Assembly: GCF_009617975.1 (NCBI RefSeq)
Contig: NZ_CP040089.1
Coordinates: 750,001-782,000 of the forward strand
Length of the DNA: 32,000 nt
Source of the DNA: Candidatus Nanohalobium constans
GTDB lineage: Archaea; Nanohalarchaeota; Nanosalinia; Nanosalinales; Nanosalinaceae
Direction of reading: 5' to 3'
The first letter of the stretch is position 1. Every line of letters starts with the position of its first letter. Both the position numbers and the translations under genes were made by a program. Below are positions 14,470-30,789 of the stretch, piece by piece. Under the pieces are notes generated by a model. It was not told the origin of the DNA and made no database searches. It saw only the letters and a program-made list of their open reading frames with translations.

Positions 14470-14739
14470 ATGAGAGATCCCTGGAAATTCGTAGCATTTG
14501 GACTAGCAGCAGTATCAGGATACATGTCATCAAGCATTGCTACTAGTATCGCGACTCAAAACTACGGGTTGCCAGAACTTCCAGGGAATGTACTGATTAT
14601 TGCCGGCATTGGACTATTTACTGGATTCTTGATCGATGAACTGATTCCAGCATACTACGAAAAAGTCAGAGGCAGCTCAGCAGGAGCAGGAGGAGACTTC
14701 GATGCAGGAAGCGGAGGCGATGACTTTGACTTCGACTAA
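14470..14739 (+). CDS. Small two-helix membrane protein with a Gly/Asp-rich tail
   Basis: 89 aa. Two hydrophobic segments and the tail GSSAGAGGDFDAGSGGDDFDFD. Confidence 0.55.
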   Translation: MRDPWKFVAFGLAAVSGYMSSSIATSIATQNYGLPELPGNVLIIAGIGLFTGFLIDELIPAYYEKVRGSSAGAGGDFDAGSGGDDFDFD

Positions 14740-15217
14740 AAAAATCCTGCTAATAACCCTACTACTAGCTGGATTTGTTTCCACCGTTTCAGCCGACTTC
14801 TACTATGGCAGCGGAGGCATCTCTACAAGTAGCGATTACTTCACAACCCCCGAATTTAGCTCACAACAAGAAATAGCTACAGAACTAGTCGCACCATTCA
14901 TATTCATCACAGTACTCCTGCACTTTGCACTAAGCAAAGCACTGAACTTCATCATGGCAGAAGATGTAGAAAAGGAGAACTACCACGCAATACCCTACGG
15001 AATACCTCTCAGAGAAAAAGAACACGGACATGACAGACTTCATCCAGATGCCAGAAAATACGCCATGATAATGTCCCTCACAATAACTGCCTCACTCGTA
15101 CCAACACCATACTGGGACATAATCAGAGGAGCAATGGGATTAATAGGAATAGGAACAGCGATTGCATTTGCGACCATTATAGGGTTTGTAATTTATTTGA
15201 TGGCCAAAGTACCATGA
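14720..15217 (+). CDS. Membrane protein with signal peptide, unknown function
   Basis: MTLTSTKKILLITLLLAGFVSTVSA, then the helix APFIFITVLLHFALSKALNFIMAED and two further C-terminal helices. ATG 14702 is an alternative start. Confidence 0.6.
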   Translation: MTLTSTKKILLITLLLAGFVSTVSADFYYGSGGISTSSDYFTTPEFSSQQEIATELVAPFIFITVLLHFALSKALNFIMAEDVEKENYHAIPYGIPLREKEHGHDRLHPDARKYAMIMSLTITASLVPTPYWDIIRGAMGLIGIGTAIAFATIIGFVIYLMAKVP

Positions 15218-16755: not shown

Positions 16756-16896
16756 ATGGCAGAAGAGGCAACACAGACTGCGACCATTATGGTTCGTATG
16801 ATGAACAACATTGATGTCGCTTTGATTGGAGCAGCGGCAGGCTTTGCAGTGTCAAAAATGACTGGAAGAAAGAAGCGTGGAATGGGAGGATTCTAG
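16756..16896 (+). CDS. Possible 46-aa single-helix membrane micro-protein
   Basis: ATG at 16756. MAEEATQTATIMVRMMNNIDVALIGAAAGFAVSKMTGRKKRGMGGF. It fills an otherwise empty gap in a tight operon and is below the ORF-track length cutoff. Confidence 0.35.
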   Translation: MAEEATQTATIMVRMMNNIDVALIGAAAGFAVSKMTGRKKRGMGGF

Positions 16897-16906
16897 GTGG
16901 TTAAAA

Positions 16907-17170
16907 ATGAATAAAGCACAGAACTTCAGAGATTTTGTTTACAAGGCAGAAAACATAATAGACGAACTCCTGATCGTGCTACTATCACTGGGAGCGATTA
17001 CAGTGACAGTTTACACGATGTTCTTCACTTCCCAGAGCTACGACTTCATCGAGTTCGGGCGTATAATCTTCCCATGGCTAACAATGCTCGGACTGATGAT
17101 TATCGGTCGAGAACTCTGGATAATGAACCGGAAAATAACAGCCTACCTTGAACAACAAGGTGAAGAATAA
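16907..17170 (+). CDS. Small two-helix membrane protein
   Basis: ATG 16907 is preceded by AGGTGG with 6-nt spacing (the ORF-track start at 16877 is GTG). Helices are LLIVLLSLGAITVTVYTMFF and IIFPWLTMLGLMIIG. Confidence 0.55.
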   Translation: MNKAQNFRDFVYKAENIIDELLIVLLSLGAITVTVYTMFFTSQSYDFIEFGRIIFPWLTMLGLMIIGRELWIMNRKITAYLEQQGEE

Positions 17171-17173: not shown

Positions 17174-17758
17174 GTGGCTCCAGAAGTCTCCGGATTCTCC
17201 AATATTATTTCTCTTCTAACAGGCGCAGACGCGTTCAGCCTACTATTCCCATTCATACTCGCATGGATGCTATTCCTAGCAGCAATCGAGAAAGCAGAAA
17301 TATTTAAAGGAAGCGATAGCCTGAATAACGCTCCTCCAGTAATGGCTATGATACTAGCATTCTTCACCGCCAGATTCCTAGTAGCACAGCCAGCATACCA
17401 AGACTTCTTCCAGGTATTCTTCGGAAAAATAGTGATAGGACTGGCATCGATATTAGGTCTGCTAACACTGGGAGCATTCACAGGCTTTGATTACAGCGAT
17501 AAAGATATCTTCAAGAAGCCTTTATTCGGCATAGCTGTATTAATGGCAGTGGCTGCCTTCATTTGGGCAGGAGGATTTGGTCCTATAGCAAGCCAGACGA
17601 ATGTCGGCAGCACATTAGCAGCTATCGCTTCATACACTCTGGAAAGTGGAGCAATATGGCTCCTGGTGATAGGTGGAGCAATATGGGCTGTTATGAAGCC
17701 TGGTGGTAGCTCAGGCGGCGACACTGATACAGGAGATGATGGAGACTCAGATGGATAA
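17174..17758 (+). CDS. Polytopic membrane protein with a Gly/Asp tail, unknown function
   Basis: 194 aa with a GTG start. Helix FPFILAWMLFLAAIEKAEIF, DFFQVF peptide, and tail GGSSGGDTDTGDDGDSDG. Confidence 0.65.
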   Translation: MAPEVSGFSNIISLLTGADAFSLLFPFILAWMLFLAAIEKAEIFKGSDSLNNAPPVMAMILAFFTARFLVAQPAYQDFFQVFFGKIVIGLASILGLLTLGAFTGFDYSDKDIFKKPLFGIAVLMAVAAFIWAGGFGPIASQTNVGSTLAAIASYTLESGAIWLLVIGGAIWAVMKPGGSSGGDTDTGDDGDSDG

Positions 17759-17771: not shown

Positions 17772-18290
17772 ATGGCAGTGTTTGAGAATATACTTCAGAT
17801 GATGGTGAGTTCGGGGGCATACTACATTTTTGTTTGGCTCCTTTTCGCAGGGCTTATCTATGGCATGCTTGAGAAATATGAAGTTTTAGGAGATTCCTCT
17901 GCTATCGCTGGAGTTGCTTTAGGCGGTTCTTTCCTTATCGTGCTTGGTATCGCCTTTGCTGGACCTGCCAATGCAGTGCTTCTTGATTTTGCTGGCGGTC
18001 TTGGTTTTATAGCAGTTGTCTTGTTCGGCACGGCTATCCTCTTAGGTATGAGCGGTATTGATGTCATGGATATGGGAGAGGATGGTGGCTTGGAGGGAAA
18101 TATTCTGGCTGGTGCTGGATTGATTTTTGTGGCAATAGCGTTGATAGGTGCTATTGGATTTAATGTGAATCTTGAAAGTGTTTTGTCTTTAGGTAGTGGA
18201 GATGTCTATCAAGATGTGGTATTTCCTATTGCGTTCCTAATATTCTTGTTACTGGCAATTGACGCCACTACAGGCGGTGGCGGAGACTAG
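17772..18290 (+). CDS. Polytopic membrane protein with a Gly tail, unknown function (paralogue-like to 17174)
   Basis: 172 aa. Helix YYIFVWLLFAGLIYGMLEKYEVL, several Gly-rich helices, and tail TTGGGGD. Confidence 0.65.
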   Translation: MAVFENILQMMVSSGAYYIFVWLLFAGLIYGMLEKYEVLGDSSAIAGVALGGSFLIVLGIAFAGPANAVLLDFAGGLGFIAVVLFGTAILLGMSGIDVMDMGEDGGLEGNILAGAGLIFVAIALIGAIGFNVNLESVLSLGSGDVYQDVVFPIAFLIFLLLAIDATTGGGGD

Positions 18291-18318: not shown

Positions 18319-19185
18319 TTACCAGTCTTTTAGTTGTTCGTCGACTTGTTCCATGTCTTGGCTTGAGATGTTGGTCTCTGTTTGTATTCCTTTTTCTTGT
18401 TTCATTTCTTGTACCAGGCTGGTTAGGTCTCTGACATTGTCGACTAGGCTTGGTAGTACTTGTTGGAATGCTTTTTCTAGTCCTCCTATCCGTGATTGGT
18501 AGGAGTCGATGTGGTCTTCCATTTCGTCTACTTTCTGTACAAATTCTTCTTGGTCTTCATCGTCCCTAACTTCTAGGTCGTGGACCCGGTTTTCTAGGTC
18601 TTCTACTGCTTCTTCTATTGTGTCGAGTTCTTCGTACATGTTTTCGAACTCTGCTTTTACTCTTTGGAAGTTCTCTGCTACTATTGTTTCGATCAGTTCT
18701 TCCACTGCTGGATCAACTGATTGTCCTTGTCTTTCGTTTTTAGTTGGTTGATTCTGTGTTGGTTGCTGCATGTTGTTTGCCGACAGTTTCTGTTGCTGTG
18801 TATTGTTTTCCTGTTTTTGAGGCTCGTCGTTGTATCCTTCGTCCATTGGACTCACTGGTTCGTCGTCGCTTTGGTATGGTGTCATTGGTTGAGGTCCATC
18901 GTCTTGAGAAGTTGCTGAACTGGTTACTGCATTGTTCACTGCATTGCTGATTTCTTGTTCTGAGTATTGTCCTTGTAGTTCGTTTTTGATCTCGTCTTCG
19001 CTGTATCCTTGTTCGAACATCTGTTCTACTGTCCTATCGAGGCTTCCACCGCCTAGATCTGAGTTTGAGTCTAGGCCTCTGTCTCCTAGACCTGGGCTAC
19101 TGGTGTTGCCTCCTATTCCCTGTGTCTGGTTATCTGGGTTGCTTCCACCGTCGTCTCTGAGGCGTTCGAATAGTTTGAATTTCAT
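18319..19185 (-). CDS. Acidic protein with a disordered Q/N/G-rich N-half and a C-terminal coiled coil
   Basis: 288 aa. Low-complexity NNTQQQKLSANNMQQPTQNQPTKNERQ, then the helical region EELDTIEEAVEDLENRVHDLE...IGGLEKAFQQVLPSLVDNVRDLTSLV. Its ATG directly abuts the upstream TAA. Confidence 0.6.
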   Translation of the reverse strand: MKFKLFERLRDDGGSNPDNQTQGIGGNTSSPGLGDRGLDSNSDLGGGSLDRTVEQMFEQGYSEDEIKNELQGQYSEQEISNAVNNAVTSSATSQDDGPQPMTPYQSDDEPVSPMDEGYNDEPQKQENNTQQQKLSANNMQQPTQNQPTKNERQGQSVDPAVEELIETIVAENFQRVKAEFENMYEELDTIEEAVEDLENRVHDLEVRDDEDQEEFVQKVDEMEDHIDSYQSRIGGLEKAFQQVLPSLVDNVRDLTSLVQEMKQEKGIQTETNISSQDMEQVDEQLKDW

Positions 19186-19644
19186 TTAATTTTGAGCCTC
19201 TCTGAAGTCTTGTTCTTTTTCCAGGTTTTTTAGTTTTCTGTCTATAAGGTTTTCTACTTCGTTTTTCGACATCGCTTCCTGGTTGTTTTCTTCCAACATG
19301 TCTTGGGCTTCGCTTTTGGTTATGAAAGAACTGTTTATCGGGTTCATCAGGTCCATGTAGTTCTCCATCTCCTCAAGTTCCTGAGATGTCACGAATTTTC
19401 TTTTTTCCCTGTTGATTTCTTTGATGTCTACTTCCATATTGGCTAGTCTGTCCCTGATCTCTGACATGTCGTCTCTTAGGTCCTGCATATCGTCGGATAG
19501 GTCGCCGGTTTTATCCAGCAGTGTGTCGTCCAGTGTGTTGACCCGGGCGTTAAGGTTTCTGACTTTTTCTTCCAGGTCTCTGACTCTGCGGTTGAAGTCG
19601 TTTACCCTGTCGATTATCCTGTTTATCGTGTCGCCTTGGGCCAT
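19186..19644 (-). CDS. Coiled-coil protein, unknown function
   Basis: 152 aa. RRVRDLEEKVRNLNARVNTLDDTLL...MSEIRDRLANMEVDIKEINRE is heptad-like. It is divergent from the pilus ATPase across 48 bp. Confidence 0.6.
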   Translation of the reverse strand: MAQGDTINRIIDRVNDFNRRVRDLEEKVRNLNARVNTLDDTLLDKTGDLSDDMQDLRDDMSEIRDRLANMEVDIKEINREKRKFVTSQELEEMENYMDLMNPINSSFITKSEAQDMLEENNQEAMSKNEVENLIDRKLKNLEKEQDFREAQN

Positions 19645-19692: not shown

Positions 19693-21951
19693 ATGGCTGT
19701 AAGAGACAAAAATGTTTTCGACTACGAATACGAGGAAGAAACCGGTACTGTCCGAGTAAACATGCTGGGCAGCATCTACGGAGCTTCAATAGAAGACTAC
19801 CCCGAGGTCATGTCTCGTGTAATAAATATTCTTCAAGAAGTACCGGGTGCTTCATCAGTCATACTTTCAGAATCCCGTGACTACGAGTACGGGGAAGAAG
19901 AGATCAGCCTGTTAAGAGGAGTAGCAAATGCTATACAGGAAATCTCCTCAGAAGGCTATCTTTCACAGAACATCAAGACAGATAACTGCGACCAACTCTA
20001 CAGCCAACATTTGCCGGAGGTTCAGCAAACTGTTTTCGACAAGATGAGGCGCGACCCTGTCGGCGCTTATGTCGAACTGCGTAGAAAAAAACGGCATATG
20101 CAGCAATCCAAAGAAGACTCAGAATATCCTCAGCAAAGCCGCTGCAGGAAATACTTCATACAAGATGTGATACAACCAGTACTGGACAGGATGGAGCAAT
20201 GTGAGATAATTCAAAGAGCAACGAACTACATAACCGGGCACCATGTAGGCGACAGAGAAGTCTACAGAGAATACTTCCATCCTCTAGTTAGACCGAACTT
20301 CATGCTTACCAAGTTCATGTCTTTGCCTCCTGAGAGAGGTGAAGAGATCGACAGGTACACGGTACGGAACGATATCGAGGTTACGACCTACCGGGTACCG
20401 GATAAGACCCGTCCTGTATACCATGTAGACCCGCCAGAGTTCAACCTTCCGGAAGAGAAGTACAACCTGTTGGACGCAGCAAGGAGATTCATGGCAAGTC
20501 ACGACCCCGAATCCGGAGAATTCGCCCGACCAGAAAGAATGCAGAATGTATTCCAAAACATCGGCAGGGACATGCTGAGAGACATATCCAACCAGATGAA
20601 TATCCAACTAGGACAAGAAGAACTAGAAAGCCTGACAGACATACTAAACAGGTACACCTCAGGTCTAGGCGTACTAGAACTACTACTAGCAGATCCGAAA
20701 ATCGAAGATGTATATGTCAACTCTCCTGTCGGCAGCAGCCCAATCTATGTCAAACACCAAGACTACGGAGAATGCGAAACCAACCTCATACCCACCAAAG
20801 AAGAAGCAGAAAGCTGGGCCACACGATTCAGAATACAAAGTGGACGCCCACTAGACGAAGCCAACCCAGTACTCGACACAGAAACAGAAGTAACAGGCGG
20901 AAGAGCAAGAGTAGCAGTAATACAAGAAAACCTTTCACCAGAAGGACTAGCATTCGCATTCAGACGCCACAGAAGCAAAGCATGGACACTACCACTCTTC
21001 ATCAAAAACAACATGATATCGCCGCTCGCCGCAGGACTCCTAAGCTTCATAGTAGAAGGCAACAGAAGCGTCCTCTTCTCAGGAACAAGAGGAGCAGGAA
21101 AATCCAGCCTTCTAAGTGCCTCAATGCTCGAGATAATGAAAAACCACCGAATCGTAACCGTAGAGGACACATTGGAGATACCAGTGCCTCAGATGAAGGA
21201 TTTAGGCTATAATATCGAAAGGATGAAGTCTAGATCCGTTATTACTCAAGTTGAGAATGAGATGAGTGCTGATAACGCTATCCGTACCTCTCTACGACTC
21301 GGCGATTCCGCATTGGTAATTGGAGAGGTTCGTTCGGATGAAGCTCAGGCATTGTATGAGGCTATGCGTGTCGGAGCAGTTGCTAACTTCGTAGGAGGTA
21401 CTATCCACGGTGAGGATGCTTACTCAGTATTCGACCGTGTTGTAAACGACCTGGATGTGCCTAAGACCTCTTTCAAGGCGACGGACATCATAGTTTCCGT
21501 CAACAAGATTAAGTCTCCTGACGGCATGGAGACATATCGACGAGTCACAGGTATCACCGAGGTTCGTAAAGAGTGGACAGATGATCCGGTTGAGGAGAAC
21601 GCGTTCGTAGACCTGATGAGATACGACAGCAGCAAGGACCGTTTAGTGCCGACAGATACATTGATCAATGGCGAATCGCTTATCCTGAACCGTATAGCAG
21701 AGAATATCAAGGAGTGGAAGAATGACTGGGATGCCGTCTGGAACAACATCCAGTTGAGGAAAGATATCAAGCAGAAGCTGGTTGAGAAAGCTGAGGAAGA
21801 AGATAGAGACGATCTGTTAGAGGCTGAGTTTGTTGTAAAGGCTAACCAGCAGTTCCATATACTTTCTGAAAAAGTTAACGAGGAGTATGGCGAGCAACAG
21901 CCAGAAAGAATAATGAACAGGTGGGAGGAATGGCTAGACCAGCAACTGTAG
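19693..21951 (+). CDS. Type II/IV secretion-family ATPase (archaeal PilB/FlaI-like, VirB11/GspE superfamily) with a long N-terminal extension
   Basis: 752 aa. Walker A GTRGAGKSS at nt 21082-21108, Asp box RIVTVEDTLEI, Walker B ALVIGEVRSDEA, His box GGTIHG. The catalytic core begins only after about 430 residues. Confidence 0.9.
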   Translation: MAVRDKNVFDYEYEEETGTVRVNMLGSIYGASIEDYPEVMSRVINILQEVPGASSVILSESRDYEYGEEEISLLRGVANAIQEISSEGYLSQNIKTDNCDQLYSQHLPEVQQTVFDKMRRDPVGAYVELRRKKRHMQQSKEDSEYPQQSRCRKYFIQDVIQPVLDRMEQCEIIQRATNYITGHHVGDREVYREYFHPLVRPNFMLTKFMSLPPERGEEIDRYTVRNDIEVTTYRVPDKTRPVYHVDPPEFNLPEEKYNLLDAARRFMASHDPESGEFARPERMQNVFQNIGRDMLRDISNQMNIQLGQEELESLTDILNRYTSGLGVLELLLADPKIEDVYVNSPVGSSPIYVKHQDYGECETNLIPTKEEAESWATRFRIQSGRPLDEANPVLDTETEVTGGRARVAVIQENLSPEGLAFAFRRHRSKAWTLPLFIKNNMISPLAAGLLSFIVEGNRSVLFSGTRGAGKSSLLSASMLEIMKNHRIVTVEDTLEIPVPQMKDLGYNIERMKSRSVITQVENEMSADNAIRTSLRLGDSALVIGEVRSDEAQALYEAMRVGAVANFVGGTIHGEDAYSVFDRVVNDLDVPKTSFKATDIIVSVNKIKSPDGMETYRRVTGITEVRKEWTDDPVEENAFVDLMRYDSSKDRLVPTDTLINGESLILNRIAENIKEWKNDWDAVWNNIQLRKDIKQKLVEKAEEEDRDDLLEAEFVVKANQQFHILSEKVNEEYGEQQPERIMNRWEEWLDQQL

Positions 21952-22003
21952 CAAAGCAGAGAAATATTCCCACCTCAATCCTTTTCTGGGAGGCAGCTAT
22001 CAC

Positions 22004-24136
22004 ATGAATGAAGAGGAGAAAGAAGACTTACAGGATATTATAGACGATATCAACAGAGATGTTCAGAACTCCTCTGTACAACCTGAGAACAGCAGGGAAA
22101 AATATTCCAAGAGCTATCAAAAATACAAGGAAGAGGAAAAAGAATCTAAAGAAACAAGCAGGTACGAAAGATTTTGCTACAAGTCAGCTTCCATCCTCAA
22201 TCTTAAAGCAGATCAGGGAACGAGAGAAAAATTAAACCCTGCAATCAAACTGGTTGGCTGGGAGATCACACCCGGAATGGTGCTTTCAGCATCCGTTATC
22301 ACCGGAGGAATAGCTTTCTTCGGATGGATGATGCTGTTTATCCTGAACTCAGCTTTCGGACTGTTCCCTAACTCACTTCTCTTCATCAGCCTGATCGGAG
22401 TGATAGGCTCAGGAGTCTACATGTACTACAAACCCATCTTCGAGGCTAAGAACAAGGTAATCAGAAGCTCAGGTGAGATGATACTCTCCATACTCTACAT
22501 GGTCATCTACATGCGTTCCTCACCAAACCTTGAGGGCGCAGTCCGTTTCGCAGCCCTAAACCTCGAAGGACCAATATCAGAGGACTTAAAAAGCGTTCTC
22601 TGGGATGTAGAAGTCGGCAAATTCAACCGCGTAGAAGAATCACTAGAAAACTATACCAAAGCATGGAAAGACTACAACGAAGACTACCTAGAATCCCTAC
22701 AACTACTGAAAGCTGCTGTCAACGAACCAAACAACGATAGAAGAGAAGACCTACTTCAAGACTCGATCGACAGGATTTTAGACGGGACACAGGAAAAGAT
22801 GAAGCACTACGCCCAAGGACTGAAGACACCAGTCATGATATTGAATGCTCTAGGCGCCTTACTCCCTGTACTAGCGATGATCATGCTGCCTCTTATCTCT
22901 GTTTTCATGGGTAGCGCAATCTCTCCCTTCCAACTCTTCCTTGCATTCAACGTCGTGCTGCCAGGAACTCTCTACTGGTTTATGCAGAAAATACTAAGCA
23001 GCAGACCGCCCACAGTCAACTCAAAGCCCAAGTCCGAGGAAGCAATGCCAGAAAGAGGAAAATACTCTCTCAATATCATGTCAAAAACAGTTAAAGTACC
23101 TTCCCGAATCATCGGCGGAGGAATATTCCTTCTAATCAGTTCATTTGGATTCCTAGGCTACCTAGCCTTCCCACACTTCTACCCTGTCCAAGAACTAGAG
23201 CAGTTAGCAGTGCCAGCCCTGTTCGGAACCTCAAACGGTTTAAGCCCATTCCCTATGCTGTTAAGAAGCCTTTCAATAACTGCAGGACTCGGCTTCGGCA
23301 TAGGCGCAACAAAAATACTTGGAAATATAGAAAGAAAGAAAGCTGAGAAGGAAATAGAAAAAATCGAGAAACAGCTCCCTTCCGCACTGTTCGAGCTAGG
23401 AAACGAGATATCAGGCGGCACACCGATAGAACTAGCCTTGAAAGATGCCGCAGACTCGACATCACAGCTAGAGATTTCAAAAATGTTCAGTAAAGCCTCA
23501 GACAACATCCAGACGATGGGCATGACCTTTGAACAGGCAATATTCGACGATAGAAACGGCGCACTCAAGGAATTCCCAAGCCAAATGCTTGATACCGTGA
23601 TGAGAGCAGTACTGTCCTCATCTGAGAAAGGCACAAAGATAGCGTCGATGGCGATGCTCACAGTCTCAAAATACTTAAAAAACGTGCACAAGACACAGGA
23701 GAGACTAAACGACCTGATGGAAGAATCTACAACTACTATCCAGATGCTTGCGTACATGCTCGCCCCTGTCGTCTCAGGAGTCGCAGTCGGAATGAGCCAA
23801 ACCATCATCTCCGCGATGTTCAACCTCGGACAGCAGTTTGCGGATACACGCCAAAGCCTGCCATCACAAGGTTCAGGAGCAGGATTCGGAGGAATACTTG
23901 GAAACCTGCAGACAGCAATCCCTCCAGAAGTACTTCAGTTCGTGGTCGGAATCTATCTCATCCAACTGTTATTTATTCTAGGAACATTTTACACTAAGAT
24001 AAAGCACGGAGAAAACAAGACGTACAAAAACATGTTCATCGGCAAAATCCTCATATCAGGCTTCATACTGTACAGCATAACAATGATCATCGTAGCACTA
24101 CTATTCGGAGGAATAATATCAAATGCAACAGCATAA
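22004..24136 (+). CDS. Polytopic platform membrane protein (FlaJ/TadC/PilC-like, two T2SS-F-like cytoplasmic domains)
   Basis: 710 aa, with GGGAGG about 10 nt upstream of the ATG. Two helical cytoplasmic domains (ISEDLKSVLWDVEVGKF... and LPSALFELGNEISGGTPIELALKDAA...) are each followed by TM helices. It sits immediately downstream of the ATPase. Confidence 0.8.
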   Translation: MNEEEKEDLQDIIDDINRDVQNSSVQPENSREKYSKSYQKYKEEEKESKETSRYERFCYKSASILNLKADQGTREKLNPAIKLVGWEITPGMVLSASVITGGIAFFGWMMLFILNSAFGLFPNSLLFISLIGVIGSGVYMYYKPIFEAKNKVIRSSGEMILSILYMVIYMRSSPNLEGAVRFAALNLEGPISEDLKSVLWDVEVGKFNRVEESLENYTKAWKDYNEDYLESLQLLKAAVNEPNNDRREDLLQDSIDRILDGTQEKMKHYAQGLKTPVMILNALGALLPVLAMIMLPLISVFMGSAISPFQLFLAFNVVLPGTLYWFMQKILSSRPPTVNSKPKSEEAMPERGKYSLNIMSKTVKVPSRIIGGGIFLLISSFGFLGYLAFPHFYPVQELEQLAVPALFGTSNGLSPFPMLLRSLSITAGLGFGIGATKILGNIERKKAEKEIEKIEKQLPSALFELGNEISGGTPIELALKDAADSTSQLEISKMFSKASDNIQTMGMTFEQAIFDDRNGALKEFPSQMLDTVMRAVLSSSEKGTKIASMAMLTVSKYLKNVHKTQERLNDLMEESTTTIQMLAYMLAPVVSGVAVGMSQTIISAMFNLGQQFADTRQSLPSQGSGAGFGGILGNLQTAIPPEVLQFVVGIYLIQLLFILGTFYTKIKHGENKTYKNMFIGKILISGFILYSITMIIVALLFGGIISNATA

Positions 24137-24152
24137 AGGAAGTAGATCAGAA

Positions 24153-24239
24153 ATGAAGGCTCTAATCGGAATAATAATAGGAATGGTGTCAATAGCAATT
24201 TTCCTATCAGTATGGAGCTCTTCACCAGCGATACCATGA
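24153..24239 (+). CDS. Possible 28-aa hydrophobic micro-protein
   Basis: MKALIGIIIGMVSIAIFLSVWSSSPAIP, with AAGGAAG upstream. Its stop overlaps the next start in an ATGA at 24236-24239. Confidence 0.35.
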   Translation: MKALIGIIIGMVSIAIFLSVWSSSPAIP

Positions 24240-24427
24240 AAAAACGCAAAGGCGATGTTAATGGAACTAGGTTCCTCGTAGAAGTCATACTAGCAATAGC
24301 TGCACTGACACTTGCCTTATATTTTATACCTGAATGGCTGCAAAACGCAAAGGAAGCGACGCAAGGTTGCACAATACTTCAATCAGTAGTCGCAGATGCA
24401 ACACAGGGCGCAATCAACTCATGCTGA
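24236..24427 (+). CDS. Small pilin-like protein with a class III-type signal
   Basis: 63 aa from ATG 24236. MKKRKG then DVNGTRFLVEVILAIAALTLALYF. Two Cys lie in the short C-terminal part. Confidence 0.55.
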   Translation: MKKRKGDVNGTRFLVEVILAIAALTLALYFIPEWLQNAKEATQGCTILQSVVADATQGAINSC

Positions 24428-24434
24428 CACAACC

Positions 24435-26546
24435 ATGGTAAACACACATTTCATCATCGGCATAACACTGACAATCCTAGTGACAGCCACAACGCTATCC
24501 GCATACAACTCAATAAGAATAAACACTCTCAACCCGCAAGCAGATAAACTAGATCAAGTAACCGGACACATAGGTCGCCCTGACATCAAAATATCTTCTA
24601 AGAACCAGCTGAAATCCACAGTACTGTTCAACATGCTGGCAGCAACCGACTGCAGAATATTAACAAGTTACGCCTATGCAGAACGACAAGGAGAAAATAT
24701 AGATATTAAAAGCAACGCCAACCAACTGAGCGACATCAATGATACAGCCTACTACTCGGAAGGACTTAGTCCTGCATTCAAACACGGTTTTTCAGGTGAA
24801 TGTGCAGGAGCCGGAGGACAAGCTTACGCAGTCGGTGAGTTAGTTGAAGAAAGCAGTAAGTCCGCAGTTGAGTCACTGCCCGGAGGGACAGCTTTAGCCA
24901 ACTTAAAGAATATTATAGGAGGTGCTGACAGAGAGTTTTTAGAGGAGCCAGGAAGAGACATGGAAGGAATGTTCGGCAAAATAAAGTTCAAAATAAATAA
25001 GACAGAGGACGAAGGAAAAATCCGGATTGGAACAAACCAAAACTCAAAGTTTATAGCAATGAAAGCAATTAACCCATCAGGAAACCTGCTCAACGACCAA
25101 GATTCAAGGATACCGGACTTCTTACTTGGTGAAAAAACTTCAGCATTTATCCCAGCAGGCGTGAGTTTAAACCAGTACTCAGAGATGAACAACGAGTGCC
25201 CGGATGGAAGCGGTTATGTTGAAAAACTTAAAGCCGTTACCAGCCCTAAAAAAGCAGTTCTGGAACTTTTGGACACCAGTTTTGATTATATAGAAGGCAA
25301 TTATCCATGTGAAGCACAGGATAAGGTTCTGATAGACTTGGTAAACAACCCTACCAAGATCCATGATGGTGAGGACCTGACTAATCCAGGAATTGATAGC
25401 CTTTACTCTTCAAGAGTTCGAATAGACACAGGAGAAACTAGAAGAATTATTGTGGAAGATGCTGGAGAGTTTAAGTACGAAACAGGAGGCAACCAGTACA
25501 GATCTTTCCTTAATCAGGCGAAATGGTACTTATGTGAAGGTGATGAGGGCTACATTCAGAGCAATGCAGGAACATACGATAACACTGGTGAGGCAGGTTC
25601 AGAGAATTTTGTAAGAGAGGATAGAGTATATCCCTTGATAAAACTCACTGAATCTACAAACTGTCTTGATAGAGGCGGTCCTGACGCACCAACCACCAAT
25701 TTCGGAGTGTATTCGACGTCAGAAGTACATCAGAAAGTAAGCTGCAGTGTTGAGGAGAGCATCGCAAAAGAGAAGAAGTTTACAGCCAGTATCCACGACA
25801 CCAGCACAGATTATTACTGTGGTTTGGTACCTCAGACTTTCCGTTTTGATGATTACAGTGGCGAAGTCGACTATTACAGAACCGGTTTGTTCGCCGAGCA
25901 AGATATGTGTCCGGAGTCCGGAATGCGGAAGAATATGCTGGATGAAGAAATACTCGAATTACAGGCGGAAGAGTACTCTTACGACTGGAAGGGAGATAGA
26001 CCTCGGAGCAGCTATGCATTCCTGGACAACGGAGACCTCAAGATGAGAGGAAACCACCAAGGAGGCGTACTAGGTTCAGATGGGAACGCAACTGCAGAAT
26101 GGAATGTCAAAGATTACGATAACTTTGCTCTCACAGGAGTTATAGACATCCTAAACCAAGGAAGCGAATTTACAGACACAAATACCAAGGAATCAAACGG
26201 ACAGCTGAAATTCAAAGTGAATAATGAAACAGTTATGGAGTACAAGAAGAGAAAAGGAGTATCAGGAATCTATTCAAGAGGAGAACTTAAGGCTGAGATC
26301 TCGGACGAATACGACGAGACAGAACTCAATTTTGTCATAAGAGAGAGCGGTACTATGACGCTAACCATGGTAGATGCAGGCAAACAAGTGCAAAGTTCAT
26401 TTGACGCAACCAGAAACTTCCACGAAGACCATCCAACAAACATAAAGATAGTGGTCAAAGGCGAAAAAGGAGGAGATAACTATAGACTCCCTATACAAAT
26501 GGAAAAAGCAATCCTAAAGAACTCTAAACCAGCAGGGTGTGAATAA
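24435..26546 (+). CDS. Large Cys-rich extracellular protein with an N-terminal pilin-like helix (candidate adhesin or minor pilin)
   Basis: 703 aa from ATG 24435. MVNTHFIIGITLTILVTATTLSAY is followed by a long hydrophilic region with more than 10 Cys. I recognise no domain. Confidence 0.7.
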   Translation: MVNTHFIIGITLTILVTATTLSAYNSIRINTLNPQADKLDQVTGHIGRPDIKISSKNQLKSTVLFNMLAATDCRILTSYAYAERQGENIDIKSNANQLSDINDTAYYSEGLSPAFKHGFSGECAGAGGQAYAVGELVEESSKSAVESLPGGTALANLKNIIGGADREFLEEPGRDMEGMFGKIKFKINKTEDEGKIRIGTNQNSKFIAMKAINPSGNLLNDQDSRIPDFLLGEKTSAFIPAGVSLNQYSEMNNECPDGSGYVEKLKAVTSPKKAVLELLDTSFDYIEGNYPCEAQDKVLIDLVNNPTKIHDGEDLTNPGIDSLYSSRVRIDTGETRRIIVEDAGEFKYETGGNQYRSFLNQAKWYLCEGDEGYIQSNAGTYDNTGEAGSENFVREDRVYPLIKLTESTNCLDRGGPDAPTTNFGVYSTSEVHQKVSCSVEESIAKEKKFTASIHDTSTDYYCGLVPQTFRFDDYSGEVDYYRTGLFAEQDMCPESGMRKNMLDEEILELQAEEYSYDWKGDRPRSSYAFLDNGDLKMRGNHQGGVLGSDGNATAEWNVKDYDNFALTGVIDILNQGSEFTDTNTKESNGQLKFKVNNETVMEYKKRKGVSGIYSRGELKAEISDEYDETELNFVIRESGTMTLTMVDAGKQVQSSFDATRNFHEDHPTNIKIVVKGEKGGDNYRLPIQMEKAILKNSKPAGCE

Positions 26547-26584
26547 TTAACAACTACATCAACAGAATAGCGGACGAAATCAGC

Positions 26585-26749
26585 TTGCAGACCAAAAAAG
26601 GATTCAACAGGATACCATTCGTAGTTGCCGGGTTTATTCTAGCTATTATGATAGTTGCCGCGTATTTCAGCGGTTTTGATAACGTTCTTACCTCGGTCCT
26701 AGGCGGATTTAATGAAACTGCTAACTCCCACACCGTGCCGAACCCTTGA
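26585..26749 (+). CDS. Possible 54-aa pilin-like protein with a TTG start
   Basis: The frame opens after TGA 26540-26542, and TTG 26585 is the only canonical start before the helix. (M)QTKKG then FNRIPFVVAGFILAIMIVAAYF. Below the ORF-track cutoff. Confidence 0.4.
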   Translation: MQTKKGFNRIPFVVAGFILAIMIVAAYFSGFDNVLTSVLGGFNETANSHTVPNP

Positions 26750-26759
26750 CCACAGATAG

Positions 26760-26773
26760 TTTATTGATTTAAA
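26760..26773 (+). promoter_or_regulatory. Possible internal TATA-like element ahead of the pilin sub-operon
   Basis: TTTATTGATTTAAA lies about 30 nt upstream of ATG 26798, in a 48-bp gap. Confidence 0.25.
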
Positions 26774-26797
26774 CGAAGAGTTGTTAATGTAGTATTA

Positions 26798-26926
26798 ATG
26801 GATATTGCGATCAAACTGGGTTTAAGTTTTATCGTATTCATGTTGCTAGCCGCCATATTAGGAAGTATGCTTAACTTCGGGCAAAACCAGGTTTTAGGAT
26901 TTGTTAACGGACTGTTATCCTTATGA
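26798..26926 (+). CDS. Possible 42-aa membrane micro-protein
   Basis: MDIAIKLGLSFIVFMLLAAILGSMLNFGQNQVLGFVNGLLSL. Its stop overlaps the next start in an ATGA at 26923-26926. Confidence 0.45.
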   Translation: MDIAIKLGLSFIVFMLLAAILGSMLNFGQNQVLGFVNGLLSL

Positions 26927-27138
26927 ACGGACAGGTAGCATTGGCAGTAGCATTCATAGTTGCTCTAGGCCTCATTGCCACAGGTTACAGCATCAATAGC
27001 GGAGGAATCGACATTTTTGAGAAAGGCTTCCTTGGGGATAGCGGTCTCCTTGATTCGGTAAACGACACAGGAGAAGAAAGTATTATCCAAAAGCCAAACC
27101 TATCAAACAAAAATGTGGAGCAAGGAGGTCAATCATGA
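26923..27138 (+). CDS. Pilin-like protein with a class III signal peptide
   Basis: 71 aa. MNG then QVALAVAFIVALGLIATGY, a G-Q junction typical of archaeal prepilin cleavage sites. Confidence 0.7.
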   Translation: MNGQVALAVAFIVALGLIATGYSINSGGIDIFEKGFLGDSGLLDSVNDTGEESIIQKPNLSNKNVEQGGQS

Positions 27139-27530
27139 AGGGTTTAGCCAGCATTGTAACCATATTACTGATGTTTGCAACAATTTCATCCTCAGGCATT
27201 GTAGTATTCAACGAAATATCGACTAACGTGCTTAATTCCGTATCTGAACTTAACGGACCAGTACAAAAACTAGTATCCGACATTAACGAAGTCTGCAACC
27301 ATAACAAAGACAACAAGGATGGAAGTAGGCGTGTAACCGGAAGCTTTAGACAACAAGATACTACTTTAGATATCACAGGAGCCCAACTCGAAATAAGCGG
27401 AGATGATGAGCCTAAGACCACGGAATTAGACTGCGAAATATCCGAAGACGTTGAAGGATGGCACGGCGGAAGATACGAGATAAGAACAGCCGGACCACAA
27501 GACCAGATGTTTAAATTCAACACCAGATAA
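27135..27530 (+). CDS. Pilin-like protein with a class III signal peptide
   Basis: 131 aa. MKG then LASIVTILLMFATISSSGIVVF. AGGAGGT lies 6 nt upstream, and the start overlaps the previous stop in an ATGA. Confidence 0.7.
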   Translation: MKGLASIVTILLMFATISSSGIVVFNEISTNVLNSVSELNGPVQKLVSDINEVCNHNKDNKDGSRRVTGSFRQQDTTLDITGAQLEISGDDEPKTTELDCEISEDVEGWHGGRYEIRTAGPQDQMFKFNTR

Positions 27531-27552
27531 CAGAAAAAAGAGAATAACATAT

Positions 27553-27987
27553 ATGAGGAACAAAGGTGCAATTGCTACACTTTCAATGCTAATACTCTCC
27601 TCAATACTCTCAGTAACAATAGCAGGAGTAGGCATTGACAGAATAAACACTCTTGAACAAACAATAAGAGCCGAAACTATAGATATCCCTGCCAACAGAA
27701 TACAAAACAATCTTATAATGGTTAGCTCACTGAAAGAAGGAAGTATAGAAATGGAGTTTACATCAGAATATAATATAACTCGCGAAGATGACAAAACATA
27801 CATAGCTTACGAGAGAGACAAACTTGAACTATCTAAAGGCAAGAAAACTTTCAAGAGCAGGATAAATGAAACAGAAAAATTCTCTGCAGAGACAGGGAAG
27901 GACGACAAAGTTTGCATAATGAAACAGAAAAACTCTATCCCTAAAATTACGCCAGGAGAGTGTGAAGAATGGAACTTAATCCAATAG
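27553..27987 (+). CDS. Pilin-like protein with a class III signal peptide
   Basis: 144 aa. MRNKG then AIATLSMLILSSILSVTIAGVGI. Confidence 0.7.
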   Translation: MRNKGAIATLSMLILSSILSVTIAGVGIDRINTLEQTIRAETIDIPANRIQNNLIMVSSLKEGSIEMEFTSEYNITREDDKTYIAYERDKLELSKGKKTFKSRINETEKFSAETGKDDKVCIMKQKNSIPKITPGECEEWNLIQ

Positions 27988-28340
27988 ATTCTTCACATAT
28001 GCTCATAGCTACAATTTTCCTACTCACCCTAGTAACAATACACTACCAATTCTCGTTAAATAATATTGAGGGCTTAGGAGAAGTTACAACCCAATGGACA
28101 CGAGGAGAAGGTTTAAAATCTGCCACAATGTTTAAAATATCAAACCAGGATGGCGAACTTGGAAGCATCTCCAAAGAAGACGCCTGCAGCTTAAATATAG
28201 GGAAAGAACTAGCTGCAGAGTACGATAAAAACAGTTGCGGAAACTCCCTAGTATCCAACCCTGTACACGGATCCACGATCAGAATTTCAGAAGACAAAAA
28301 ATCTACTTTATCAGCTTTCTGGGTGAGCGGTGCAAAATGA
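27969..28340 (+). CDS. N-terminally anchored small protein in the pilin operon
   Basis: 123 aa. The helix MLIATIFLLTLVTIHY lies near the N-terminus but has no clear K-G motif. ATG 27999 is an alternative start. Confidence 0.55.
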   Translation: MELNPIDSSHMLIATIFLLTLVTIHYQFSLNNIEGLGEVTTQWTRGEGLKSATMFKISNQDGELGSISKEDACSLNIGKELAAEYDKNSCGNSLVSNPVHGSTIRISEDKKSTLSAFWVSGAK

Positions 28341-28735
28341 AGAAAACAAAAGGATTTGTTTCACTAGCCCTAAGCATATACGTGCTCGTTTTCATCCTTC
28401 TCATGGCTACTCACTACCTCCAAAACCAGTCTGTATCAGCAGAGCTCTACGCAACAACAGATTTCGACAAAGAGCAGTTTGAAACAAACTTGGCAACTGC
28501 AGCACTACTTAACGAAACCACAAAACAGTACATCATAGAAGAAAAAGAGGATAAGATATCCCACATATTAGCTGAGATGTCAACTATAGACTTCAGATTC
28601 CAAATAAAATCAAATAACGGGATGAACATCGGAAGAATAACCGATACAGCAGGCTCGACAACAGTAACAATCGGCTCCCCATCAGAAGAACCATTAGAAG
28701 TAACTATGACACAAGGTGAAAAAGCAAATGAATAA
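28337..28735 (+). CDS. Pilin-like protein with a class III signal peptide
   Basis: 132 aa from ATG 28337, which overlaps the upstream stop in an ATGA. MKKTKG then FVSLALSIYVLVFILLMA. The 28235 extension in the ORF track is rejected. Confidence 0.7.
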   Translation: MKKTKGFVSLALSIYVLVFILLMATHYLQNQSVSAELYATTDFDKEQFETNLATAALLNETTKQYIIEEKEDKISHILAEMSTIDFRFQIKSNNGMNIGRITDTAGSTTVTIGSPSEEPLEVTMTQGEKANE

Positions 28736-29726
28736 AGGACTAGTAACAGTAATTATACCCATATTCACAGTAGTATTCATAGGTTCGGGAACGCTCTACA
28801 GCTCAGTTATGATAACAGACTCATTCAAGGAGACAATAGAGTACAACACCGGAGACCCAGCAAAGATGTCGGAAACCAAGCTCAAGGCAGACCTATATCC
28901 CGAAAAAATGCGGAAAGAGCTCAATTTTTCCATAAACAAGAAAGTAACAGATAACGATAGAACAGATATAACTGGGAGAGACAATTTGATACAGAAGCAT
29001 AAGTCCGAGGTTCTATCACATGTAAAAACACAGAACAGAGTTGAAGACTGCGGCAAGCCTCCAATTAATAGTTTAAATCTGAATAATGATGTTTACAGCC
29101 TAGTTTTTGAGGAAGAGTTTATTGACTGTTCTTCTTCCTCGGCTGAAGTACAGATACCATTTGATGCTTCGAATATACGTGTAGACAAGTCCAGAACACA
29201 CTACATAGATATGCTGATACACTCAACCAGCGTAAGAGATAATTTTATTGAGAAACTGCCGGACAAGCAACCAGAGTACAGTGGAGATAGCGGGGGAAAC
29301 TCCTGCCCCGAAGACCTAGATGATGAGAAAGAGGACGCACGTGAAGACGCTGAAAACAAATACGAAAACTCAGATCTAGCTGACAAACACTCAGACGCAT
29401 TAGAGGCAGCATCACTACCGCCAGAACCTGTTGAAGCAGATAGCAGCCAGGATGCGGATAAATCTTTCAGCACAACCCTCAAAGACGAGGAAACCTGCAG
29501 ATACAGAGACGGATGCAACAGCAGAGATAAAGACGGACGCTGCATCGAACCAGACTACTCCACAGGCAGAACATACGACGTATCAGCCACCCTTACAATC
29601 GAAGGCATAGATGGAAACTTCAAATTTGAGAACGAAGAAGTAGACCTGCTAACCGATGTGGACGAAAACGGGGACCTCCAGTACAAAAACCCTATCTACA
29701 GATTCCAAGCATCAAAAACCTACTAA
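28728..29726 (+). CDS. Larger pilin-like protein with a class III signal peptide and an acidic, Cys-containing C-terminal domain
   Basis: 332 aa from ATG 28728, with AGGTGA 8 nt upstream. MNKG then LVTVIIPIFTVVFIGSG. Confidence 0.7.
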   Translation: MNKGLVTVIIPIFTVVFIGSGTLYSSVMITDSFKETIEYNTGDPAKMSETKLKADLYPEKMRKELNFSINKKVTDNDRTDITGRDNLIQKHKSEVLSHVKTQNRVEDCGKPPINSLNLNNDVYSLVFEEEFIDCSSSSAEVQIPFDASNIRVDKSRTHYIDMLIHSTSVRDNFIEKLPDKQPEYSGDSGGNSCPEDLDDEKEDAREDAENKYENSDLADKHSDALEAASLPPEPVEADSSQDADKSFSTTLKDEETCRYRDGCNSRDKDGRCIEPDYSTGRTYDVSATLTIEGIDGNFKFENEEVDLLTDVDENGDLQYKNPIYRFQASKTY

Positions 29727-29779: not shown

Positions 29780-30058
29780 ATGCCACAGGAAGATGACAAT
29801 ACAGTATATGTCGGTTCTAAACCAGCAATGAGCTATGTACTTGCAGTAGTAACCCAGTTCGACGAAGGACACGAACAAGTACATGTAAAAGCACGGGGAA
29901 AAGCAATCAGCCGAGCAGTAGATGTCGCAGAAATAGTAAAAAGCCGGTTCATCGAAGAAGCAACAGTAGAAGACATCAGCATCGGCACAGACCAAATCGA
30001 AACAGATGAAGGAGACGAAATCAATGTCTCAAGCATCCAAGTAGACCTAAGCCAATAA
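29780..30058 (+). CDS. albA: Alba DNA/RNA-binding chromatin protein
   Basis: 92 aa. [19 protein letters not shown]...[24 protein letters not shown] matches the Alba core. Confidence 0.92.
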
Positions 30059-30107: not shown

Positions 30108-30139
30108 TTTTTTATACCGGTGAAACAAAATAACCGGTA
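30108..30139 (+). promoter_or_regulatory. TATA-like run plus a 7-bp inverted repeat reaching the start codon
   Basis: TTTTTTATA at 30108-30116. TACCGGT (30115-30121) and ACCGGTA (30133-30139) are perfect inverted repeats with an 11-nt spacer. The second arm ends on the A of ATG 30139. Confidence 0.35.
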
Positions 30140-30417
30140 TGAATAAGGAGAAAGGTCTATCACAGGTACTAGTCCTAATTGTAGCAGCCGCCGTACTAAT
30201 GATGGTCGGACTAATGCTTGTGCAGATATTCTCAGGCAACATAAATGATACGAATCAAGGAGTAAAGCTTTCTGCATGCCAACAAAACGTCAATCAGATC
30301 TGCAGCAACCCTCCAGACGACAATCCCTCAGCGCCAGCCACATGCAACGGCTTTGATGGCGATGACGTAGAAGGACTATCTGACGACGGAGAGGAAGTAG
30401 TCTGCAGCGATACGTGA
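30139..30417 (+). CDS. Cys-containing pilin-like protein with a class III signal peptide
   Basis: 92 aa. MNKEKG then LSQVLVLIVAAAVLMMVGLMLV. Four Cys lie in the acidic C-terminal part. Confidence 0.65.
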   Translation: MNKEKGLSQVLVLIVAAAVLMMVGLMLVQIFSGNINDTNQGVKLSACQQNVNQICSNPPDDNPSAPATCNGFDGDDVEGLSDDGEEVVCSDT

Positions 30418-30423: not shown

Positions 30424-30789
30424 ATGGACATAAGCATTGAGGCAGTTGTCGTCCTGATGGTATCAGCAATTGTAGCATTCATAGTCATCGGGATGGCTAC
30501 GAGCGAAAGCGACAGCTTCAAAGGATTTCTTGGAAGCCAGACGGATGCTGCAAGCTGTGAACTAGGATACTCACAGTACAAATCAAGAGTAGACTGCGAC
30601 GCACAAGCCGGAGACGGCACAGACTTCGAACAGAAAGATAAATGGGAAAAATGCAATGCAGCAGACTCCCAAGACGGATGGTACGCAAGATACTGTGGAG
30701 ACTCAAACACAGAACAATCCTCAACCAACACAGAAGAATGCAACCTACCAAGACAAATGATCAACGGAGAGTGTCAGAGCCCCAGCTAG
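30424..30789 (+). CDS. Cys-rich small protein with a pilin-like N-terminal helix
   Basis: 121 aa. MDISIEAVVVLMVSAIVAFIVIG resembles the class III signal core (xISxE + hydrophobic run). Six Cys are present. Confidence 0.6.
   Translation: MDISIEAVVVLMVSAIVAFIVIGMATSESDSFKGFLGSQTDAASCELGYSQYKSRVDCDAQAGDGTDFEQKDKWEKCNAADSQDGWYARYCGDSNTEQSSTNTEECNLPRQMINGECQSPS

Follow-up and report, generated by a model that had tools for sequence, protein, structure and literature searches.

A type IV pilus-like assembly locus with a series of about 13 pilin-like genes in Candidatus Nanohalobium constans

What does an archaeal ectosymbiont build from a secretion ATPase, a membrane platform protein and a long series of proteins that each carry one hydrophobic helix at the N-terminus? 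The question is raised by a locus of Candidatus Nanohalobium constans LC1Nh, a cultivated nanohaloarchaeal ectosymbiont of Halomicrobium (PMC7443923). We analyzed a stretch of 32,000 nucleotides of its genome (NZ_CP040089.1, positions 750,001 to 782,000), here called the window, in which positions are genome coordinates minus 750,000, so that the ATPase gene LC1Nh_0941, at genome positions 769693-771951 (La Cono et al. supplement, bioRxiv 10.1101/794461), begins at window position 19693. For nanohaloarchaea, as for other DPANN archaea, physical contact with a host is a necessity, and this locus is among the group’s best-conserved surface-machinery loci. In the account of La Cono et al., LC1Nh_0941 is one of the ‘archaella’ genes, and the genes downstream of it stay hypothetical (bioRxiv 10.1101/794461; PMC7443923). 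Here we show that the locus is a genuine, expressed type IV pilus-like assembly system together with about 13 fast-evolving pilin-like genes; it is probably a filament system of the pilus type, not an archaellum, and fits the layout published as ‘Locus 2’ of cluster-2 DPANN.

The identification of the assembly machinery rests on two genes, which were included in profile scans of 34 open reading frames (ORFs) of the window, most of the large ones among them:

19693-21951, plus strand: LC1Nh_0941, secretion ATPase of the GspE/FlaI/CpaF superfamily, 752 amino acids (aa), called from Pfam, PDB-sequence and motif matches.
22004-24136, plus strand: LC1Nh_0942, TadC/FlaJ-like platform protein, 710 aa, arCOG01814, called from T2SSF matches and transmembrane segments.

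LC1Nh_0941 matches the Pfam family T2SSE (E=1.8e-15), with the Pfam core beginning at residue 422, and among solved structures it is closest to A. fulgidus GspE 2OAP (2.8e-26), Caulobacter CpaF and Sulfolobus FlaI. A preliminary description of the locus, made from the DNA letters without database searches, had read four catalytic motifs in this protein, and all four are there: Walker A GTRGAGKSS at residues 464-472, the Asp box at 488-495, Walker B at 540-548 and the His box at 568-573. It had also counted about 430 residues in front of the catalytic core, a figure that has to be cut back, because similarity to the N-terminal domain of GspE, FlaI and CpaF already starts at about residue 292-325 and the lineage-specific extension is only about 290 aa. 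LC1Nh_0942 matches T2SSF (PF00482) over two stretches (E=8e-8, 32.7 bits, cut-off 25.2) and has about eight hydrophobic, transmembrane segments, as expected of the two-domain polytopic FlaJ/TadC-like protein described before. The idea that a peptidase is fused to LC1Nh_0942 was rejected, since no peptidase motif was found in its sequence.

Downstream of the platform gene, eleven co-directional ORFs follow one another, with starts at 24123, 24236, 24435 (or 24396), 26585, 26798, 26923, 27135, 27553, 27969, 28337 and 28728, and two further genes of the same type lie past alba, at 30139 and 30424, which makes 13 in all. Every one of the 13 has an N-terminal hydrophobic window (Kyte-Doolittle at least 1.76). 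The earlier count of eleven single-helix ORFs is right once the 38-aa ORF at 24123-24239 is included, which falls below the 40-aa minimum of the ORF listing and was seen only with a shorter limit. The five gene overlaps reported at the same time, ATGA at 24236, 26923, 27135 and 28337 and 8 nucleotides at 28728, are all real overlaps of stop and start, the one at 24236 included because there the stop of the 24123 ORF overlaps the ATG. The series reads as follows, a slash standing directly after the glycine of the motif discussed below:

24123-24239, plus strand: unannotated mini pilin-like ORF, 38 aa, MQQHKG/SRSEMKALIGIIIG..., with GGAGG 9 nucleotides 5′ of the start.
24236-24427, plus strand: LC1Nh_0943, pilin-like, 63 aa, MKKRKG/D..., two Cys, ATGA overlap with the 24123 ORF.
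24435-26546, plus strand: LC1Nh_0944, N-terminally anchored protein, 703 aa, ten Cys, annotated start 24435 (alternative 24396).
26585-26749, plus strand: unannotated mini pilin-like ORF, 54 aa, TTG start, QTKKG/FNRIPF..., orthologues in the related loci L001, L002 and L003.
26798-26926, plus strand: unannotated ORF, 42 aa, one helix, no leader, orthologue in L003.
26923-27138, plus strand: LC1Nh_0945, 71 aa, N-terminal helix, with an MNG motif that orthologues do not keep.
27135-27530, plus strand: LC1Nh_0946, 131 aa, MKG/LASI, two Cys, in the same blastp component as LC1Nh_0947.
27553-27987, plus strand: LC1Nh_0947, 144 aa, MRNKG/AIAT, C-terminal Cys pair invariant in family alignments.
27969-28340, plus strand: LC1Nh_0948, 123 aa, N-terminal helix without K-G, two Cys (from the ORF and its Cys count).
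28337-28735, plus strand: LC1Nh_0949, 132 aa, MKKTKG/FVSL (from the ORF and the motif scan).
28728-29726, plus strand: LC1Nh_0950, 332 aa, MNKG/LVTV, six Cys, family in 16 loci with 320-513 aa.
30139-30417, plus strand: LC1Nh_0952, 92 aa, MNKEKG/LSQVL..., conserved N-terminus, candidate major subunit.
30424-30789, plus strand: LC1Nh_0953, 121 aa, N-terminal helix without K-G, six Cys, in the same blastp component as LC1Nh_0952.

Directly before the helix, a K-G pair stands in 8 of the 13 window proteins. Seven motifs had been listed before, introduced as six plus one, a wording at odds with the seven items of the list itself; all are present as written and six are K-G, but the MNG of the gene at 26923 is N-G and is not conserved, its orthologues starting MR.... 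Two K-G motifs, HKG at 24123 and EKG at 30139, are additional to that list. When the 27 related nanohaloarchaeal loci of our comparison set are taken together, the closed Nanohalovita and Nanosalina genomes among them, [KR]G lies just before the helix in 138 of 237 proteins, versus 42±5 when the N-terminal residues are shuffled (1000 shuffles, maximum 58), a difference that measures an effect size and gives no strict probability, since the proteins are mutually related. Lysine occupies position −1 in 130 of the 138, and arginine position −2 in 66. Experimentally studied archaeal pilins use KGQV-, KGQI- and KGIS-type sites too (PMC4371748), and the pilins of another LC1Nh locus likewise carry K-G (KG/VSPVVATVLL).

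The arrangement recurs wherever it can be examined. All 16 loci that have both TadC and alba contain 8-12 co-directional ORFs with an N-terminal helix between the two, and up to three more such ORFs, two in most loci, past alba; the gene order in these 16 runs from membrane genes through two coiled-coil genes, the ATPase, TadC and the 8-12 helix ORFs to alba and then to more ORFs. In an all-against-all BLAST comparison the positional families are present in 15-24 loci. The ATPase is 78-83% identical between the genera compared (76-87% across the nanohaloarchaeal relatives compared) and the platform protein 59-63% across the three loci compared, whereas the small ORFs are at most 35% identical between genera or undetectable. 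Their position and N-terminal motif are nevertheless kept in all examinable nanohaloarchaeal loci, so that the small ORFs are conserved, one of the points on which the preliminary description had made itself testable. The same layout is found in a freshwater DPANN locus (L028), whose ATPase is 47% identical over residues 32-752 and whose downstream N-terminal-helix proteins are mostly larger, at 353-804 aa, one of 50 aa excepted. That the pilin set is ‘unusually large’, as had been said, is a relative matter: a locus of the Halomicrobium host has an ATPase/TadC pair and seven genes annotated as pilin or flagellin.

The small ORFs are also expressed, the other point of that kind. In the published mass spectrometry of the LC1Nh co-culture (bioRxiv 10.1101/794461, Supplementary Data 2), all of the 10 annotated small proteins except LC1Nh_0943 and LC1Nh_0948 were detected, which makes eight. 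Given as peptides in biomass/secretome, the counts are 22/21 for LC1Nh_0944, 2/0 for LC1Nh_0945, 4/0 for LC1Nh_0946, 9/0 for LC1Nh_0947, 7/0 for LC1Nh_0949, 6/2 for LC1Nh_0950, 14/0 for LC1Nh_0952 (with a PAI value of 0) and 5/4 for LC1Nh_0953, beside 19/9 for the ATPase LC1Nh_0941, 18/10 for the platform LC1Nh_0942 and 20/8 and 6/0 for the neighboring coiled-coil proteins LC1Nh_0939 and LC1Nh_0940.

Four conserved small genes, those at 24123, 26585 and 26798 and another at 16756 upstream of the ATPase, are missing from the LC1Nh gene list of the preprint supplement; the four ORFs (38, 54, 42 and 46 aa, respectively) encode one transmembrane helix each and have positional orthologues in other nanohaloarchaeal genera. 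An ORF of 38-59 aa directly after TadC matches the one at 24123 by position in most related loci, and the ORFs that match 26798 by position in other genera begin RKG/LEISLS or MKG/LELSLS. For LC1Nh_0943 we favor a start at 24236 over the annotated 24212, judging from the ATGA overlap and the MKKRKG leader; together with the 26585 ORF it belongs to one blastp component of 61 proteins from 24 loci. The family of LC1Nh_0944 has 28 members in 23 loci, with 309-835 aa, an MLKG-type motif in most other genera, and no Pfam or PDB match. A gene of this type stands in tandem duplicate in L003, L006, L013, L020 and L022, with a mini pilin-like gene between the copies in L003 and L022. The spread of lengths and the duplication suggest a rapid diversification of this subunit.

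The number of Cys residues is even or zero in each of the 13 window proteins, and LC1Nh encodes DsbA-type oxidoreductases; together with the C-terminal Cys pair of the LC1Nh_0947 family, these observations fit an extracytoplasmic location. In LC1Nh_0952, pairwise identity across genera is 67% over residues 4-30 versus 24% elsewhere, K5, G6, S8 and Q9 are invariant, and a TATA-like TTTTTATA element lies within 40 nucleotides upstream of the start. Within the pilin-like series sits the alba gene (29780-30058), a conserved position that is odd for a gene whose product is a chromatin/RNA-binding protein; in the 16 non-redundant loci that have it, its distance downstream from TadC is 4.9-7.1 kb, mostly with pilin-like genes beyond.

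How might such a set of proteins work as a filament system? The K-G proteins would be inserted into the membrane and then cut after the glycine by a class III signal peptidase encoded elsewhere, after which the ATPase and the platform would pull them out of the membrane and polymerize them through their N-terminal helices into a filament. LC1Nh_0952 is the best candidate for the major subunit, because of its conserved N-terminal helix, its variable Cys-containing head and the TATA-like element upstream. The proteins of 38-71 aa and 123-144 aa could be minor subunits that prime or cap the fiber, while LC1Nh_0944 and LC1Nh_0950 might be tip or adhesin subunits. On the inner side, the coiled-coil proteins may serve as scaffold or regulatory parts in the cytoplasm, and together with the small, conserved membrane proteins encoded upstream they may be accessory to a cytoplasmic or membrane base. 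The most likely role would be to make contact with a surface or with the haloarchaeal host, and the fast evolution and the duplication of ectodomains would fit exposure to a host or an environment.

A number of results weigh against reading the small proteins as pilins and the locus as a pilus system with this role. K-G is missing from five of the 13 window proteins. A strict core pattern of the FlaFind-like kind fits 27 of the 237 proteins and four of the window’s motif-bearing proteins; it fits so few because the hydrophobic core begins 4-8 residues after the glycine (+4 to +8), with several polar residues between. In its general form, a short basic leader with G or A at −1 and then a hydrophobic helix of about 20 residues, the putative class III signal proposed before is present, and the strict core is limited to those four proteins. 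When the profile hidden Markov models (HMMs) proposed as a check were run, T2SSE and T2SSF were matched and Class_IIIsignal was not: with Class_IIIsignal PF04021, Pilin_N PF07790 and Arch_flagellin PF01917, 0 of the 147 small proteins taken from the window and from 17 related loci matched at E≤0.05, none of the window proteins did at E≤1, and NCBIfam pilin models gave no match to the window proteins. This negative is a weak one, because canonical-looking LC1Nh pilins fall below the Pilin_N cut-off as well (control pilins LC1Nh_0346 and LC1Nh_0347, E=0.31 and 0.006). An AF2 model of LC1Nh_0947 (36 family members, pLDDT 67) has a helix at residues 4-58 (55 residues) followed by a seven-strand beta-sheet, which at moderate confidence gives the predicted protein the pilin ‘lollipop’ topology only. 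Foldseek of this model against the PDB found no solved pilin (best E=0.72, ribosomal proteins as top matches), and the family profile found no pilin among PDB sequences; the profile was required, a word-index search with the single LC1Nh_0947 sequence having returned only itself. Profiles of the LC1Nh_0944, LC1Nh_0937 and LC1Nh_0938 families gave nothing meaningful against PDB sequences.

The search for a maturing enzyme points the same way. As had been noticed from the letters, no prepilin peptidase is in view: Peptidase_A24 has no match among the window ORFs scanned, and ‘A24’ or ‘prepilin’ brings up only host entries in the authors’ LC1Nh annotation and proteome tables. For LC1Nh, the text of La Cono et al. 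names only signal peptidases of type I, SppA, rhomboids and an archaeosortase, and in the part of the LC1Nh protein list that was searched the motif G[GA]D[VAIL]K occurs only in an unrelated NTPase. Two nanoarchaea are likewise without a prepilin peptidase (Makarova et al. 2016, PMC4858521). Filaments are visible on LC1Nh cells (PMC7443923), but LC1Nh carries two other type IV pilus-like loci, and because of these the filaments seen by microscopy are not assignable to this locus.

Against this background, what else could the locus be? The placing of LC1Nh_0941 among the archaella genes implies an archaellum and hence motility, which we regard as very improbable. The name does have a basis, for JGI and the genome authors call homologues ‘FlaI’ or ‘archaellum biosynthesis ATPase’, the FlaI equivalog NF058587 is the top NCBIfam match of LC1Nh_0941, and the 288-aa coiled-coil protein LC1Nh_0939 gives a sub-threshold match to FlaC_arch. 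The FlaI match, however, reaches 145.3 bits where the cut-off is 550, and the ATPase also falls short of the TadA equivalog TIGR03819 (128 bits, cut-off 373) and of the Sulfolobus bindosome model BasE NF053672 (73.5 bits, cut-off 1000); a Flp-type pilin is hardly indicated either, with one chance-level Flp1_like match among the 147 proteins. The genome authors themselves assign LC1Nh_0941 to arCOG01818, whereas a separate gene, LC1Nh_0350, is their arCOG01817 FlaI. Archaellin FlaA/FlaB, FlaF/FlaG and KaiC-like FlaH have no Pfam or NCBIfam match among the 34 ORFs, which agrees with the earlier remark that no archaellin or FlaH gene is visible, and in the view of Hamm et al. 2019 the ‘Fla’ set of nanohaloarchaea does not suffice to make an archaellum (PMC6642349). 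The failed FlaI equivalog, the arCOG and the missing archaellum genes all bear out the choice of a pilus over an archaellum made in the preliminary description.

A short pseudopilus, that is, a type II secretion piston or a ComG-type fiber that exports surface proteins or imports DNA or host material, is unlikely, yet it has more in its favor: it would serve a symbiont unable to make nucleotides or lipids, the locus has many low-abundance ‘minor’ subunits, three mini-proteins of 38-54 aa and no clearly dominant subunit within the cluster, and its order of ATPase, platform and pilin-like series resembles that of comG and gsp operons, in which an ATPase and a platform are likewise followed by a series of pilin-like genes. 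Pilus-mediated DNA uptake has moreover been proposed for DPANN (PMC9563170). No gene for a secreted substrate, a DNA receptor or a channel was recognized in the locus, however, while the conserved helix and variable head of LC1Nh_0952 are typical of a major fiber subunit and the filaments on LC1Nh cells are long. Improbable, too, is that the small ORFs are ordinary Sec-inserted surface or envelope proteins, anchored at the N-terminus and never polymerized, which merely stand beside the ATPase/TadC pair. The missing pilin HMM and fold matches, the five proteins without K-G, the lack of a prepilin peptidase in the authors’ tables and a distant Methanolobus relative whose ATPase/TadC pair stands alone would all suit such proteins. 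Against them stand the R-K-G motif, which is strongly enriched right before the helix and survives sequence divergence, the tight translational coupling, a gene order that is fixed across genera and a layout that recurs in another DPANN lineage; the mini-proteins, moreover, are little more than single helices with no obvious use outside a helical bundle or fiber. Finally, we consider it quite unlikely that this is a DPANN-specific filament machine mechanistically unlike known pili, in which the conserved N-terminal ATPase domain of about 290 aa, which has no recognizable fold, would act together with coiled-coil partners in the cytoplasm and with small membrane proteins dedicated to the machine, maturation would do without an A24 peptidase (by another enzyme or by none), and the resulting structure would bridge or penetrate the host envelope. 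The pilus-type filament system remains the probable answer.

The N-terminal domain of the ATPase deserves attention in its own right. Its family comprises 248 representative clusters among 1.8 billion proteins, and consists of ATPases about 720-800 aa long and of versions with an intein; the family extends weakly to Methanolobus, the relative mentioned above. The domain has no match in Pfam, in PDB sequences or, as an AF2 model, in Foldseek. That model (pLDDT 64) consists of an alpha/beta subdomain, a helical bundle and a small sheet. Within residues 1-300 (window 19693-20592), C99, C151, H135, H196, H244 and H270 are invariant among 65 sequences, and these Cys and His residues may form a metal site. 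The nanohaloarchaeal ATPase homologues P0049, P0088, P0090, P0098, P0112 and P0117 (loci L018 and L021-L024) are about 1245 aa long and contain intein and LAGLIDADG domains (PF14890, PF14528); tblastn matches to the intein-bearing orthologues break at query residue 494, within the Asp box. Longer versions still, P0157 and P0177, have about 1780 aa.

The conserved unit also extends beyond the interval 19693-29726, since membrane and coiled-coil genes upstream of the ATPase are kept across loci as well:

14702-15217, plus strand: LC1Nh_0934, membrane protein with three hydrophobic segments, a conserved upstream neighbor with homologues (E≤1e-5) in 16 related loci and no Pfam match.
15254-16717, plus strand: LC1Nh_0935, membrane-anchored long acidic coiled-coil protein with three N-terminal hydrophobic segments.
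16756-16896, plus strand: unannotated ORF, 46 aa, one transmembrane helix and a basic tail, positional orthologues of 45-47 aa in L001, L002 and L003.
16877-17170, plus strand: LC1Nh_0936, protein with two transmembrane segments, in 22 loci at 40-67% identity.
17174-17758, plus strand: LC1Nh_0937, protein with five transmembrane segments, in 23 loci, no PDB or Pfam match.
17772-18290, plus strand: LC1Nh_0938, protein with five transmembrane segments, in 23 loci, no PDB or Pfam match.
18319-19185, minus strand: LC1Nh_0939, coiled-coil protein, 288 aa, divergent from the ATPase gene, 51-83% identical in 23 loci, no transmembrane helix or signal peptide.
19186-19644, minus strand: LC1Nh_0940, coiled-coil protein, 152 aa, no transmembrane helix, 61-72% identical in 24 loci and also present in the freshwater DPANN locus L028.

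The LC1Nh record calls LC1Nh_0935 an SbcC-like ATPase; the Pfam matches of this protein are all sub-threshold and mainly to families of the coiled-coil type, and 14 biomass and 17 secretome peptides were counted for it. Large proteins lie upstream in other loci too, where the best weak blastp matches to LC1Nh_0935 have 181-746 aa. The ORF at 16756 is visibly similar in sequence to its L003 orthologue, and the true start of LC1Nh_0936 is probably the ATG at 16907, which fits the orthologues better than the GTG at 16877. LC1Nh_0937 and LC1Nh_0938 were considered as divergent prepilin peptidases and rejected, as they have no invariant Asp, Glu, His or Ser, no GxGD and no Pfam A24 match. The FlaC_arch match of LC1Nh_0939 (E=1.4e-4, 22.6 bits, cut-off 27.8) and its match to Arch_fla_DE (E=0.098) are both below threshold and of a kind that coiled-coil composition can yield. 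Since neither coiled-coil protein has a signal peptide or transmembrane helix, a cytoplasmic location is suggested, and for the pair (18319-19644) a role as a cytoplasmic scaffold appears no less likely than one outside the cell.

Elsewhere in the window, three large acidic proteins, encoded at 1362-3110 (minus strand), 3215-6661 (minus strand) and 19-1323 (plus strand), each have an N-terminal hydrophobic segment; the 582-aa protein has Ig- and fibronectin-like domains and the 1148-aa protein PKD and CarboxypepD_reg domains. They are candidate surface or adhesion proteins, a kind discussed in the genome paper. A cluster of toxin-antitoxin type at 11029-11424, 12171-12852 and 13088-14207 contains PIN/VapC-like genes and nucleotidyltransferase-HEPN pairs, two of each, of which the second in either case is called by sequence resemblance only. 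It lies between a diphthine-synthase-like methylase and the pilus-like locus, a place where L001 and L003, which have Trm5 and the methylase, carry other genes. No tRNA and no Rfam family was matched in the window.

How much of this was known? The core of this locus type is already published, and the filament subunits were previously unannotated. In cluster-2 DPANN, Hamm et al. 2024 described two type IV pilus-like loci that are conserved and include coiled-coil proteins (PMC11291902); they gave filament proteins (FlaF, PilA) to Locus 1 only, the neighbors of which are GroEL, GatE and Mpg, and likened the coiled-coil proteins to a viral attachment protein. The present locus is assigned to Locus 2 by its layout, because GroEL, GatE and Mpg were not seen among the window ORFs scanned. 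In the supplement of that study, a 243-aa protein of Ca. Nanohaloarchaeum antarcticus matches arCOG02911, ‘predicted pilin/flagellin’, and its tag is close to that of a Locus-2 coiled-coil gene; the supplements hold no arCOG entries for the ATPase, TadC or a peptidase (PMC11291902). The ‘dark-matter’ genes with signal peptides that stand beside ATPase/TadC in DPANN had been interpreted as diverse pilins by Makarova et al. 2019 (PMC6393860). What our analysis contributes is an inventory of subunits, four unannotated genes, an uncharacterized ATPase domain and the question by which enzyme class III signal proteins are matured where a genome has no annotated prepilin peptidase. It also names targets for antibodies, filament proteomics and cryo-electron tomography: LC1Nh_0952 as the candidate major subunit, and LC1Nh_0944, which is large, detected in the secretome, fast-evolving and sometimes duplicated.

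Set beside known systems, the locus shares with the archaellum a homologous ATPase and platform and subunits with class III signals; it differs in that the FlaI equivalog failed and that archaellin, FlaH, FlaF and FlaG have no match. With bacterial type II secretion, type IVa pilus and ComG systems it shares the logic of an ATPase, a platform and a series of pilins, with varied minor subunits and a large tip subunit. Bacterial pilins carry a disulphide-bonded D-region, to which the C-terminal Cys pair of the LC1Nh_0947 family may be likened. Unlike the bacterial systems, it has no outer-membrane secretin or alignment complex, its leaders lack the G/F...E5 pattern, and its ATPase is of the archaeal/Tad branch.

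A further comparison is with the multi-pilin pili of euryarchaea, such as the Epd pilus of Methanococcus maripaludis and the PilB/PilC pili of haloarchaea, where an ATPase and TadC are likewise followed by several proteins with class III signals and sites of the K-G type. Those systems, like the set proposed here, combine one small major pilin with at least five minor pilins, which in haloarchaea belong to arCOG02911, and with large adhesin candidates (PMC4858521). In LC1Nh, by contrast, the subunits match no pilin model, the ATPase is extended at its N-terminus by a domain of about 290 aa, genes for coiled-coil proteins and for three to four small membrane proteins are constant neighbors, and no peptidase lies in the locus. 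The closest counterpart is Locus 2 of cluster-2 DPANN itself, in which the proteins are likewise expressed and a CpaF-like ATPase and TadC adjoin two coiled-coil genes, an arrangement found here, in 23-24 nanohaloarchaeal loci and in the freshwater locus L028; what sets the present account of it apart is that the coiled-coil proteins are found to be without a signal peptide or transmembrane helix and that 13 pilin-like genes are mapped downstream.

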